Shown here: positions 19,068 to 24,223 of the stretch, piece after piece
Layout: every line of letters begins with the position of its first letter
How positions within the stretch are numbered: position 1 is the first letter of the stretch
Assembly: GCA_965204535.1 (NCBI GenBank)
Contig: OZ241996.1
Span: 1,440,001-1,504,000 of the forward strand
Source of the DNA: a bacterium
GTDB taxonomy: Bacteria; UBA8248
Length of the DNA stretch: 64,000 bases
Reading direction: 5' to 3'
Position numbers and translations under genes: made by a program
Notes under the pieces: generated by a model
The model's database searches: none
What the model saw: the letters and a program-made list of their open reading frames with translations, nothing else
What the model was told of the DNA's origin: nothing

Positions 19068-20594
19068 TTGGAGATTCTTGGAAATCTATTCTACGGGCTG
19101 GGCATTGCGCTCTCGCCGCAAAATCTCTTGATGGCGTTGTTCGGCGTCGTCCTGGGCGTCGCCATCGGCGCGATGCCGGGCTTGGGATCCGTGAATGGCG
19201 TCGCCATTCTCCTGCCCATCACGTTCGCCGTTCCGCCCACGAGCGCCATCATCTTCCTGGCCGCCATCTACTACGGGGCCATGTACGGCGGCGCCATCAG
19301 TTCGATCACGCTGAACATTCCGGGCGCGTCCACGGCCGTCGCGACCACGTTCGACGGCTATCCGCTTGCGAGAAGGGGGAAAGCCGCCGATGCCCTTGTG
19401 ACGGCCGCGGTCGCCAGCTTTATCGGCGGAACGATATCCATCGTCCTCTTTACCTTTTTCGCCCCGCCCCTGGCCGAGTTCGCCTTGCGCTTCGGCCCGC
19501 CCGAGGAGTTCGCCGTCGTGCTGCTGGCGTACGCCACCTTTGCGGGACTGGGCGGGGAAAGCCCGCTCAAGACCATCATCGCCACCATGCTGGGCCTGCT
19601 CATGTCCACCGTGGGCACCGACATCGTGAGCGGCTCCCCGCGCCTGATATTCGGGGGCATCACGGGTTTTTACCACGGCATCAATTTCCTCGTGCTGGCC
19701 ATCGGCATCTACGGCGTCGGGGAAATTTTCTATACCCTGGAAGAAGGGTTCAAGACGAAAGAGAGATACCAGGCGAAACTCGGCGTCAGTGAAATCATCT
19801 CGACGCTCAAGAACCTCACGAAATGCACCCCCACCATCGCGAGAGGCTCTCTGCTCGGGTTTTTCGTCGGCATGCTGCCCGCCGCGGGCGCCACGCCCGC
19901 GAGTTTCATGAGCTACAGCATCGCGAAGCGGTTTGCGAAGAACCCGGAGGAATTCGGAAAGGGCGCCCTCGAAGGGGTGGCCGCGCCCGAGTGCGCCAAC
20001 AACGCGGCGAGCACGGGCTCCATGCTCCCCATGCTGACGCTGGGAATCCCGGGTTCGCCGACCACGGCGGTGATGCTCGGCGCCCTGTTCGTATGGGGGC
20101 TCGTGCCGGGTCCCCGGCTGTTCGTCGAAAACGCGGAGTTCGTCTGGGGGCTTACCGGGAGCCTCTATATCGCGAACACGATGGCGGTCATCGTCGCCAT
20201 CTTCGCCGTCCCCATCTTCATCTGGATGCTCCGGATGCCAATGACGATTCTGGCGCCGATCATCCTGGTCGTCTGCGCTGTGGGCGGGTTCTCGCCGACG
20301 CAGGACATGTTCGACGTGTATCTCATGTTCATATTCGGCGCGGTCGGCTACGTGTTCCGCAAACTCGACTATCCCCTCGCCCCGATGGTGCTGGCCCTGG
20401 TACTGGGCGGGCTGACGGAGCGCACCTTCCGCCAGAGCATGATTATGAGCCACGGGAATCCGGGCATCTTCTTCGACTTCGCAGGCCACCCCATCGCGGC
20501 GGCCTTGATGATGGTTTCCGTCGTCTTGTTCGTTCTTCCGCTTATTCCGATGATATTCAGGTTCAGGGTTTCCCGGGCGGGCACCTCGGCCTGA
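19068..20594 (+). CDS. tctA: Tripartite tricarboxylate transporter large membrane subunit
   Basis: GAMPGLG, YGGAIS.I..NIPG, DGYPLA, PECANNA, TLGIPG motifs. Confidence 0.93.
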   Translation: MEILGNLFYGLGIALSPQNLLMALFGVVLGVAIGAMPGLGSVNGVAILLPITFAVPPTSAIIFLAAIYYGAMYGGAISSITLNIPGASTAVATTFDGYPLARRGKAADALVTAAVASFIGGTISIVLFTFFAPPLAEFALRFGPPEEFAVVLLAYATFAGLGGESPLKTIIATMLGLLMSTVGTDIVSGSPRLIFGGITGFYHGINFLVLAIGIYGVGEIFYTLEEGFKTKERYQAKLGVSEIISTLKNLTKCTPTIARGSLLGFFVGMLPAAGATPASFMSYSIAKRFAKNPEEFGKGALEGVAAPECANNAASTGSMLPMLTLGIPGSPTTAVMLGALFVWGLVPGPRLFVENAEFVWGLTGSLYIANTMAVIVAIFAVPIFIWMLRMPMTILAPIILVVCAVGGFSPTQDMFDVYLMFIFGAVGYVFRKLDYPLAPMVLALVLGGLTERTFRQSMIMSHGNPGIFFDFAGHPIAAALMMVSVVLFVLPLIPMIFRFRVSRAGTSA

Positions 20595-20608: not shown

Positions 20609-21694
20609 ACACCCCACGCATCGCTGATGCACTTCCGGCTGCCGCACGGCTTCGGGCGGCAAGCCACCTTACGGCGTAATGAACTCCCAGCGGGAAAGCT
20701 TGGCATCCGCCCTATCGCAATCGTCCACAAACAGGGTTCGCCAGCGGTCGGCGCTTGAGTAGGTGGCGGCGGAGACAGCACCGACCGCGAGGCACAGGTT
20801 GGAATTCTTGAGGACCAGCTTGCCGTCGGCTTTCAGATCGAAACGCTGAAAATTGGCAGCGTTGAAGAAGATGGACGAGGTGCCGCAATCGGCGAGCATC
20901 GCGGCGGCGCCCGGCAGGGCGCCCCGATTCACGCCGGCAATGGTCACGCACTTGTTGGGCGCCGGAAACCGGATATAGCCTTCCGGTGTAAACACGACGG
21001 CCGCGTCCGGCGGCAGCCCGACCTTACAATTGTGGGCGAACAGCGGGATATCCGTGCGCAGATTGCCGGGGGTGCCCGGAATGTCGATGCAATAGCCGTC
21101 CCGCGGCCGGTCGAGACGGTCGATGAGGCGCAGATGCTGCTCGGCAGCGGCCTTTGTGCTGACGATGGTCAACAGACCGCCGATGAGGCCACAAGCGGCA
21201 ATCGTGTGAAGAACCTTCAGGAACCTCTTCAGATGAATTCTCAACTCGCCCCTCCAAACGGGTGCGCAACCACGGGCAGAATACCAGCCCCGCCTTTGGC
21301 GGCAAGTTCGAGGCCCGGATATCCCGATTGTGACTTGCGGCAGGGCTGATCGCCGGCAATGTTTCGGGAATGAGATGGATCGTCGCCGCCGTTGTCTTGT
21401 TTGCTCGGTTTTCTCAGTTAATCATTATATAACAATGGATTATCTTTTTCATTCTCCAGATGTCTTCATGCAGGGATCAGATGTTTTCCACTCCGCGCTC
21501 CCGTGTGTCCACTTGGGAAGCCGGAACGGCGGCGATATCTGGCGACCTCCGAGTAAGCGTTCCATCAGGTCGTGGCGGGCGCTGCCGCTCAAGCGCCGCT
21601 CGGGCTAAACGCCGCTGACACAACGGCTTGCAGCCCCCGAGCGTTTGAGCGGCCCGGAAGCGCGATGCGGACGCCCTTCGGCGGTTTGGTTCAC
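20609..21694. mobile_element. Putative non-autonomous cassette unit 1
   Basis: Left end acaccccacgcatcgctgatgcacttcc (20609); ~120-bp right end 21574-21694 homologous to 23146-23270. Confidence 0.65.
20669..21244 (-). CDS. Ricin-B-type lectin domain protein
   Basis: GYCIDI, HNC, KCVT, QRF, LCLAV and SRW beta-trefoil-like repeats with paired cysteines. Confidence 0.7.
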   Translation of the reverse strand: MRIHLKRFLKVLHTIAACGLIGGLLTIVSTKAAAEQHLRLIDRLDRPRDGYCIDIPGTPGNLRTDIPLFAHNCKVGLPPDAAVVFTPEGYIRFPAPNKCVTIAGVNRGALPGAAAMLADCGTSSIFFNAANFQRFDLKADGKLVLKNSNLCLAVGAVSAATYSSADRWRTLFVDDCDRADAKLSRWEFITP

Positions 21695-21774
21695 ACACCC
21701 CACGCATCGTTGGTGCACTTCCTGCCGGCGTCCACCATCGCGTGATCCTGCGGATTATGCCGTTGTTTCAGAGC

Positions 21775-22044
21775 CTGACGGCCCGCCCCGTCCCGCCCCG
21801 GCGCGCGGTCTGCGCGGACACGAAGCTCGGCAGTCTGCGCCTGCCTGACCTGCGCCATACCGCCGCAAGTCAGGCGGTTATGTCGGGCGAAGGTCTGCCG
21901 CTCGTCGGCCGGCTTCTCGGGCACAACCGGCATCGCACCACGGCAGGCTACGCCCACCTTGCCGATGCGCACCTTGTCGATGCGGCGGAAAAGGTCGGGC
22001 AATCATCGCCACCGCGATGGCGAGTCAACGCCCACGACCGATAA
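21775..22044 (+). pseudogene. Tyrosine recombinase/integrase C-terminal remnant
   Basis: LRLPDLRHTAAS...LLGH...TTAGYAHL; the expected His of HxxR reads Pro, the N-terminal domains are absent, and there is a probable frameshift after EKVG. Confidence 0.85.
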
Positions 22045-22100
22045 CGCATCGACAACAGCACCGCAGCGCTCCGGGTCGCGGAGCACGTCGAAAGCGTGCA

Positions 22101-22742
22101 TCAATCCGGCGCGACCGCCTCGCCCGTGTAAAAGGCCGCCGTACGCTGCGCCGCTGCGCGCGCAACGTCGGCGTCCGTTCCCGCTGCCTCGGCCGCCCGG
22201 CCCCACGCCGCACTGCTTCCGACGATGAGCGCCTTTCCGTCACGAGTCGTGTGGAACGTTGCCCCGTCCAACTTGGGTTCGTTCGGCCGCGTAAGATGCA
22301 GTTCCATCCCCAGCAAGCCCATCTCCCAACCTACGCCGACGGCGCCGGGACCGAACTTGCGCCAATGGTCCGACACCAGCGCGGTATGCGTAATCGCAAG
22401 ACGCGAGCGGCCGGTACTATCGTTACACAGACGCGCCTCCACCCAGCTCACGTCATCGCCGAACTCCCATGTCAGCCCGAGATGCGAGGGACGCTCGCAG
22501 TGCCGAATCGTGCCGCCTGCGTTTCCCTCCAGTTGGTAGCGACCGCCGAGTTCGAGGCGGCCGCTGACCGGCAGGAACCAGCATGGGATTCGTTCCGCGC
22601 TCGTCACGGCGTCCCAGAGGTCCTCCACTGTCGTCGCGTAGCTGCGGGCCAAGGTGACCGCGCGAGCGGCCTGTCCGTCGCGCTCCAGGGACGACACTGC
22701 GCGCTCCACGGCGCCGAGGAGGCGTTCGACATCCAGGTCCAT
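22101..22742 (-). CDS. SRPBCC (Aha1/START-like) domain protein
   Basis: EDLWDAVT..ERI..WF, GGRYQLEGNAGG, GPGAVGVGWE motifs. Confidence 0.85.
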   Translation of the reverse strand: MDLDVERLLGAVERAVSSLERDGQAARAVTLARSYATTVEDLWDAVTSAERIPCWFLPVSGRLELGGRYQLEGNAGGTIRHCERPSHLGLTWEFGDDVSWVEARLCNDSTGRSRLAITHTALVSDHWRKFGPGAVGVGWEMGLLGMELHLTRPNEPKLDGATFHTTRDGKALIVGSSAAWGRAAEAAGTDADVARAAAQRTAAFYTGEAVAPD

Positions 22743-23326
22743 GGCTTCTCCGTTTCATCAAGCAGGCGATTATCCAGGTACATGCCACTGCGTACAGCAA
22801 ATCAAGCCGCGTGGACGATGGCTCGGACCGTCCACAAGGTCGCAGACCGTCCGACAACAGCAAGTCGGAAGCCCGCCCAAAGGCGACACGCCTCGACGAG
22901 CACGAGCGCCGACAGATGGCCCGGCACTTCCTTCCCCGCAACTGTCACCCGCGGTGCGGCGACTGTTGTGCGATCTGATGACCGCTTCCCCTCTGCGCCA
23001 ATGTATACGTTACCCGGCACTTCGCGCCCGAGACAACGAGTCCGGCGTCTGTCATGCCGCCCCGCATTGTCCTGTTATCTCGTGCTTCCTATAACTGCCG
23101 CCCGGAAGCCGCGCGACGGTTCGGGACGTGTTCCCGCAAGTGCGCGGCGGGCGCTGCCGCTCAAGCGCCGCTCGGGCTGAATGCCCGGCCTGCAACGCTT
23201 TGCAGTGCGCGGTCGCTTGGTTGGCCAGGAAGCGGGTTGACGACGCCCTTCGGCGGTTCGTGGTCACACCTGAAGCATTCTTCAGTCGAAGGGTGTTGCG
23301 TCCTGCAGATTTTGAGAGATGAAACT

Positions 23327-24223
23327 TCAGGCGTCCATCGCGCACCGGAAGCCGATGTTGAAATTCTTGTACCAGGGCTCGAAGCCCTCTCTCGCCGAGC
23401 ACCTAAGGCTGTCTTCGATGTAATCCCAGCCGCAGCCCCGGGCGACCTTGGCCGTCCAGGCGTAGCCCGCCCGGCGCGGGAGCCAGCCCTCGGTGTTCCC
23501 GAAACGGATCCTGTAGCTGTCCTCGTCGCGGTGCAGTATCTCGTAGCGCTCGCCGCGCTTGACTTCGCCCAGGCTCAGGCTGCCCCCGCCCGGAACGGCG
23601 AATACGGGCACCTTCGCCATCGCCACTTCGAAGGTCGGCTTCTCCAGCCCCCGGGGGTTCTCCGCCGGGCCCGTCTGGTAGTAAAACCCGTCGAACCAGT
23701 CCGACACCCACTCGAAGACGTTCCCGGCCATCTGCACGCAACCGTAGGGAGAGGCGCTCTCTTCGAACCCGCTCACATTGGCGGGGCAGTGAATATCCGT
23801 TTCCGTGCTCGCATAGACGGCCCGCCCGGGAGAGGGTTCCTCCTCGCCCCATGGATACTTGCGCCCGTCCGTTCCGCGCGCCGCCTTCTCCCATTCCGCC
23901 TCGGTCGGCAGGCGCTTGCCCACCCAGCGGGCGTAGGCGTTCGCCTCCTCCCAACTGATGCTGACGATGGGCTGTTCCGGCCCCACGAAATCATCCCTCG
24001 CGAACGAGGGAGGCGGCGGAAACGCTTCGGTCTCCTCCAGGAAAGCGCGGTACTGCGCGTTCGTCACGCAGTATTTGTCGATCCAGAAAGCGTCGAGGGT
24101 AACCTCGCGCTCCGGACGCTCGTCCGCGTTGCCGACGTCGGAACCCATGAGAAAGGGCCCCTCGGGCACGCACACCATCGCGGCCTCGTCTTTCCCTTTT
24201 TTCATTTCCCTCGCTTCGTTCAT
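23327..24223 (-). CDS. FGE-sulfatase (SUMF1-like) domain protein with an internal SH3b-like insert
   Basis: F.MG, RLPTEAEWEKAARG, MAGNVFEWV, IGFRC; extra ~55 aa between NPRG and KVARG. Confidence 0.85.
   Translation of the reverse strand: MNEAREMKKGKDEAAMVCVPEGPFLMGSDVGNADERPEREVTLDAFWIDKYCVTNAQYRAFLEETEAFPPPPSFARDDFVGPEQPIVSISWEEANAYARWVGKRLPTEAEWEKAARGTDGRKYPWGEEEPSPGRAVYASTETDIHCPANVSGFEESASPYGCVQMAGNVFEWVSDWFDGFYYQTGPAENPRGLEKPTFEVAMAKVPVFAVPGGGSLSLGEVKRGERYEILHRDEDSYRIRFGNTEGWLPRRAGYAWTAKVARGCGWDYIEDSLRCSAREGFEPWYKNFNIGFRCAMDA

Follow-up and report, generated by a model that had tools for sequence, protein, structure and literature searches.

A tandem array between tctA and an FGE-sulfatase-domain gene

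The window, by which we mean the whole stretch of 64,000 nucleotides that was analysed, contains two units arranged head to tail after tctA, with the layout L-lectin-R-L-integrase remnant-SRPBCC-R. The features are:

19068..20594, plus strand: tctA, the left chromosomal flank (PF01970)
20609..20615, plus strand: left junction with the 7-bp overlap ACACCCC; the predicted MOBF nick falls between 20609 and 20608 of the minus strand
20609..20644, plus strand: L1, left end of the element; read on the minus strand, a relaxase-type hairpin GCATC-GCT-GATGC plus the nick sequence
20669..21244, minus strand: cargo of unit 1, a 191-aa protein with a beta-trefoil lectin domain (PF00652, E 2.4e-6; at 28.2 bits, slightly below the cut-off of 29)
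21574..21694, plus strand: R1, the right end of unit 1 in truncated form; it meets the upstream DNA at an 8-bp microhomology, GGCGGGCG
21695..21808, plus strand: middle junction core (21695-21701) plus L2, taking in the first 113 bp of the L-intA spacer
21800..22044, plus strand: C-terminal remnant of intB, the last ~80-90 codons, with 80% nucleotide identity to intact intB
22101..22742, minus strand: cargo of unit 2, an SRPBCC/AHSA1 protein of 213 aa (PF08327)
23064..23265, plus strand: R2, full-length right end, with 78-81% identity to intact elements
23266..23272, plus strand: right junction, with overlap ACACCTG; next comes the chromosomal half-site AAGCATTC, which is without a hairpin
23327..24223, minus strand: a gene with an FGE-sulfatase domain, the right chromosomal flank (PF03781)

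A preliminary description of the locus had reported paired L and R repeats with exactly shared blocks and an ACACC at each junction, and these are borne out. The L copies at 20609 and 21695 are identical at 31 of 36 positions, and the R copies (21574-21686 and 23146-23258) at 88 of 113, free of gaps. Both R copies contain the same 33-nt block, which occurs four times genome-wide, and a 17-nt block, at 21670 and 23242; ACACC lies at 20609, 21695 and 23266. The L pattern matches twice in the window, as against 0.01 matches expected from shuffles. The cargo genes do have the same orientation, lectin and SRPBCC both being on the minus strand. The proposed R of about 120 bp has to be lengthened: the gap-free 113-bp match stands, but R at full length spans about 200 bp (23064-23265), of which R1 is a shortened version. 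The sequence of genome G012 departs from R1 past 21581.

L1 matches the L of an intact element in genome G026 at 31 of 31 positions, and the stretch from 21668 to 21808 has 79% identity to G026. In unit 2, about 2.2 kb is missing, namely intA and most of intB, and the end of intB is fused to L. This remnant matches PF00589 (tyrosine integrase) below the cut-off, and its HxLRH motif reads PDLRH. The middle junction is crossed without differences by short-read contigs of two runs, which may be the source sample, with only one contig having at least 31 letters on each side; the runs containing the window stretch are mostly sponge metagenomes. The array probably consists of two decayed copies, both without integrases and probably now immobile; the window copies are remnants only.

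Intact relatives and the alleles at tctA

The proposal of a family with asymmetric ends is upheld by intact relatives of the form L–intA–intB–cargo–R, in which intA lies ~190-205 bp from L and intB overlaps intA. Both integrases are ordinary arm-domain proteins of ~390 aa. In the window's class the relatives are 7-9 kb long (intA 396 aa, intB about 390 aa), and intact copies overall range from ~3 to 37 kb. Intact elements were found in Alpha- and Gammaproteobacteria, Binatia, the window's class and metagenomes, and a Bryobacterales genome has an L and an R, with the integrases absent. The exact L pattern is present at 16 loci in the genome collection (including Alpha- and Gammaproteobacteria, Acidobacteria and Binatia), and the intA search gave 38 metagenome loci. 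The survey for L and R that the preliminary description called for has thus yielded intact, integrase-bearing copies in several phyla, but no intact cognate element in the window genome or in 23 genomes of the genus, where the best intA has 43% identity. Plasmid records contain distant integrases only (at most 43% identity), and the exact R block is absent from the viral contigs searched.

The cargo of the relatives is mostly defence: type ISP, MmeI, Mrr, a DNA methylase with Vsr, GmrSD, Abi-alpha and HNH proteins (restriction-modification or other). Gene content downstream of intB varies, and there is no conserved third gene there in the intact elements. No relaxase family was recognised among 72 selected ORFs from 18 elements, picked from a greedy list of ~130 with integrases and shadow frames dropped, and tblastn found no TrwC between L and R. 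A sister integrase pair, ~40% identical, starts 210-225 bp from the same core in five of six loci and is intact in the window's genus (two genomes). Sister pairs lie at the MOBF nick core at loci L227 (G011), L228 (G013), L210, L214 and L215 (G031).

The end of tctA could be matched in 21 of the 23 genus genomes. The site is filled in five of these (G000, G002, G011, G012 and G016, G000 being the window genome) and not filled in 16, four of which keep a recognisable look-alike, GTTTC GC(A/G)CCGG A; the empty site that the preliminary description had proposed to look for after tctA therefore exists in four genus genomes. The filled alleles differ: L-lectin-R in G011 and G012; L-lectin-first 45 codons of intA-SRPBCC-R in G002 and G016; and a tandem with the end of intB in G000. 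Judged from the sequences, the simplest reading would be that all five descend from a single old tandem in which unit 2 originally carried both integrases, with separate decay in each lineage. Contig depths and joints of the short-read runs gave no circle junction, although contigs cannot show absence.

These alleles bear on the suggestion that the units form a non-autonomous, integron-like cassette system, mini-cassettes moved in trans as they stand. Both ends are kept in the window units, small deleted L-R copies of 1.4-1.7 kb are present in other genomes (L052, L056), and SRPBCC adjoins R away from tctA in G012 and G018, all of which would fit. However, the SRPBCC-R copies of G012 and G018 have other DNA upstream, with no L found, and an identical deleted unit was not found at two sites. 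What is seen instead is different deletions at one site, which retains the N-terminus of intA in G002 and G016, the C-terminus of intB in G000, and neither in G011 and G012. The intact copies, moreover, carry their own integrases, and a cognate integrase was not found among the 23 genus genomes. Movement of the mini-units in trans is unsupported, and we regard such a cassette system as improbable. One small copy (L052 / L061) lies within the loop of a REP-like palindrome.

The R|L junction and the MOBF transfer origin

Read on the minus strand, L consists of a hairpin followed in the window by TGCGTGGGGTGT, which is identical to the nick sequence of the F plasmid, and more generally by TGCGTNNGGTGT. 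According to passages of PMC3074121, the window version of L corresponds to the last 12 nt of the F 5'-oriT oligonucleotide, where it is likewise preceded by a hairpin. A junction profile search of the window genome gave 12 further full R|L junctions with E below 1e-7; five of the six sequences from which the profile was built are among these 12. All 12 are internal to large repeated elements, with homology extending, among the matches listed, ~3 kb upstream and mostly ~700 bp downstream. In one annotated oriT copy, ssb, DUF4326 and YspA-SLOG genes are directed at the junction, and a TrwC/MobF relaxase is encoded in the same element. A NikA-like ribbon-helix-helix (RHH) gene follows a sister R|L junction. 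Given the identity to the F nick, the hairpin and the context of TrwC elements, R|L is most likely a MOBF oriT, nicked just to the left of ACACC, and R2 is predicted to be the leading side of an oriT-like att site. This oriT identity of L|R, with MOBF oriTs as the main target, was overlooked in the preliminary description.

Over 27 junctions, the pairing in the arm of the L hairpin is T-A in 16, C-G in 10 and broken in one, a covariation that amounts to one or few events because the sequences are related. Folding of the junction strands is mostly no better than that of shuffles (z of 0.02, -0.96 and -0.66, with -2.35 at the right junction), and stability is therefore set aside as evidence.

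The flanks of the relatives indicate what is targeted. Upstream of intA, 27 distinct left junctions were collected, and 16 lie in an oriT-type flank, defined as leading-region genes or an R-type hairpin upstream of the left junction; the 11 others miss this rule, several being oriT-like by eye or by the right flank. Outside the 27 are nine intA hits without an L core by pattern and five without upstream sequence. Several right junctions lead into an oriT-type hairpin or an RHH gene, and in G031 and G034 a TrwC gene lies outside the element, past the right junction. G031 also has different elements in tandem inside one oriT. The elements at L209, L210 and L213 have ssb and YspA-SLOG genes immediately within their R ends, an arrangement like that of a conjugative leading region.

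The large TrwC elements have integrase pairs of their own, whose ends are unrelated and without L and which form a clade separate from both the intA-intB pairs and their sister pairs in a quick tree. Candidate helpers in the window genome are eight TrwC, four TrwB and two TraG/VirB4-like ATPase ORFs of ~900 aa (PF19044); PF03135 was not found there.

Several further observations concern these large elements in G000. At 11 places such an element starts with two tandem genes of its own for arm-domain tyrosine integrases, mostly not near tRNA genes. One copy, of 12 kb or more, is duplicated (C1:183449 on and C2:2956500 on), with a cas1-like ORF just past the C1 copy. A 1.78-kb element with ~100% identical copies, at C1:743683-745467 and, among the matches listed, ~13 other places, lies on the leading side in many oriTs, ~250 bp away from the nick, and also occurs at a few other sites; it resembles a site-preferring IS. 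A degenerate L with an intB remnant (C2:2368694-2370185) lies within a large TrwC element, distant from its oriT.

Crossover, proposed mechanism and known systems

Junction comparisons bound the exchange from the base left of ACACC to position +7. The preliminary description's crossover core of ACACC was right in being short and regenerated, but the core exchanged is the 7-bp ACACCNN rather than 5 bp. In G032, an Mrr-like gene is interrupted by an element whose left core is ACAACAG and whose right core is ACACCCG. Homologs of the gene that lack the insertion have ACAGCAG in two genomes, and at the diagnostic position +6 four of five alleles show the base of the left core. At tctA, the GG of the target is found on the left in G002, G011 and G012, on the right in G016, whose two junctions sit on different contigs, and at neither end in G000. 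One oriT insertion in G031 has the target 7-mer on the right. Among 15 other paired junctions, the cores differ in eight and are identical, hence uninformative, in seven. The G036 target gave no information, and for the G038 insertion no close empty allele was found. There is no clear symmetric core-binding repeat around the 7-mer.

Precise alleles of this kind also bear on whether the units are simply left-over oriT fragments of large conjugative elements, produced by unrelated deletions with no dedicated targeting. The junction sequence is indeed abundant in the genome, and leading-region genes stand at some R ends. Leftovers would not account for precise empty and filled alleles, for an insertion that leaves both halves of a coding gene in frame, or for an L-intA spacing that is fixed across phyla; the paired junctions largely refute this reading, and we give it very little credence.

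A mismatch-tolerant 7-bp overlap with both outcomes is a product of two-strand tyrosine recombination. The target 7-mer on either side of the element fits such recombination, and neither joining at the nick alone nor the one-sided bias of the strand-biased circularizing elements (SE) discussed below. The junctions are thus consistent with tyrosine recombination through ACACCNN as the putative 7-bp overlap. The competing view is that a TrwC-type relaxase joins its strand to a look-alike of the nick, the unit being a nick-to-nick strand with the integrases as passengers. The unit ends do coincide with the nick region, and passages of PMC3264647 describe insertion of DNA by TrwC into minimal oriT look-alikes in the laboratory. 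Joining by a relaxase needs the target 7-mer on the right, as it is in G016 and in the G031 case; it cannot yield the left-sided 7-mer of the Mrr-like site, G002, G011 and G012, and the passenger role sits poorly with the constant spacing between L and the intA-intB pair, seen in two integrase clades. As a general mechanism, relaxase joining at the nick is opposed by the empty alleles (the Mrr-like site and three tctA alleles), with the two other cases compatible, and we think it unlikely. The crossover side is read from one sister oriT and from two sites whose empty alleles have 65-92% identity, and all three tctA alleles with the left-sided outcome come from one site; with alleles so few and distant, some relaxase-driven exchange between junctions may occur.

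Returning to tyrosine recombination, we consider it likely that the window array represents two decayed copies of an L–intA–intB–cargo–R element whose two recombinases together integrate it through ACACCNN, abutting the predicted MOBF nick. The architecture, the match to the MOBF nick, insertions in oriT flanks, empty alleles, tandems and a target 7-mer on the left or the right are all in hand at the level of sequence. The earlier idea of integrase-driven integration on a short core, with tandem accretion, gains support from the intact elements, the empty alleles and the tandem junctions. In the mechanism that we propose, the R|L joint of the circular form would be att site and oriT at once, and IntA and IntB would recombine it with oriT nick regions or their look-alikes. 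Integration would rebuild a nick-type site at each end, so that further copies could stack. We infer that the tctA site is a chromosomal oriT look-alike, and look-alikes of this sort would be secondary targets. A TrwC-type relaxase of a larger helper would then nick the element junctions and transfer the element R end first; insertion at oriT nicks makes it likely that the elements use the transfer machinery of larger elements, with no relaxase of their own.

It is tempting to go further, in a proposal that we hold tentatively and judge somewhat more apt to fail than to succeed. The elements would be widespread, relaxase-less twin-integrase parasites whose att site is a working MOBF oriT. Transfer by a helper relaxase would begin at the right junction and end at the left one, so that the element would exit as a circle, before its host or in its place, without excision by the integrases, and such elements would stack across phyla of sponge symbionts. 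If this is true, the defence cargo would go first, and the integrases would afterwards insert the element into any oriT of the MOBF type or any look-alike.

Integron cassette arrays likewise gather unrelated cargo in tandem at a single site. In contrast to their cassettes, each unit of the present family is a complete element that has integrases of its own and ends that differ from each other, and no IntI is involved: the IntI model TIGR02249, with a cut-off of 265 bits, scored 33.8 and 28.3.

The closest known system is IME_oriT of Streptococcus and Staphylococcus which, as described in passages of PMC7563843 and PMC5704250, shares a tyrosine integrase aimed at the oriT nick region of another element, secondary chromosomal sites and varied cargo. 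According to the same passages, IME_oriT elements target MobT oriTs in Firmicutes, with a Rep_trans relaxase of their own and one integrase, and their insertion is suggested to impair the host oriT (PMC7563843). The present elements are like them in inserting at an oriT nick, and differ in that the nick is of MOBF rather than MobT type, the integrases are two and adjacent, no relaxase, Rep_trans or other, was found, and the ends rebuild nick-type sites. The iOriT genomic islands, in the passages of bioRxiv 10.64898/2026.01.13.699239, have an oriT but no relaxase or mating channel and are predicted to hitch-hike on helpers; an integrase plus oriT, without relaxase or mating channel, is also what the sequences contain here. 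In iOriT islands of six clinical species, however, oriT and att are separate, and those passages do not describe an att that is the oriT nick, with insertion into helper oriTs, although the supplements could list related islands.

With SE, Tn554, GInt and RIT the elements have in common several tyrosine recombinases at one end and a short spacer carried over from earlier targets (passages of PMC10214605). The same passages describe SEs as requiring intA-tfp-intB-srap, one-sided in their bias and non-mobilizable. Here, intA and intB overlap directly, with no intA-tfp-intB-srap operon, and the few informative junctions place the target 7-mer left at two sites and right in two cases; nor is there the third recombinase of RIT or the TnpC of Tn554. 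TrwC-mediated integration uses the same MOBF nick region and look-alike targets (passages of PMC3264647, with further TrwC biology in PMC4853378), but its joints are at the nick and it works without an integrase, whereas several junctions here join beyond the nick. No description of a MOBF-nick-targeting twin-integrase family was found in the literature searched, which left out most subscription papers; the window contains remnants of an apparently undescribed family of this kind.

On this reading, integration targeted to oriT is a feature of the MOBF (F/R388) family as well as of the MobT systems of Firmicutes. Should att and oriT be the same site, two integrases and ~30 bp would suffice for targeting, transfer and stacking, restriction and other defence genes would have a simple path between phyla, and the elements would offer a testable example of a parasite at the first bases transferred. 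An integrase pair that has a conserved nick sequence as its target could likewise serve to mark conjugative elements.

R ends are found at other chromosomal sites as well. A second hotspot lies near the 3' end of a leucyl-aminopeptidase-like gene, named from its translation (L239, L240, L244, L250 and L254), with R ends in G003, G005, G008, G018 and G067, while additional genomes have other inserts there; neither this hotspot nor a third R-end site gave usable left junctions. At G000:C1:732855 and G002:C1:3574913 (L029:6905-6960), the R end adjoins a single 36-nt sequence, which in G002 is the repeat of a CRISPR array (C1:4248626-4251166). Beside the R end this sequence is part of a hairpin, and it is possibly tracrRNA-like or an orphan repeat.
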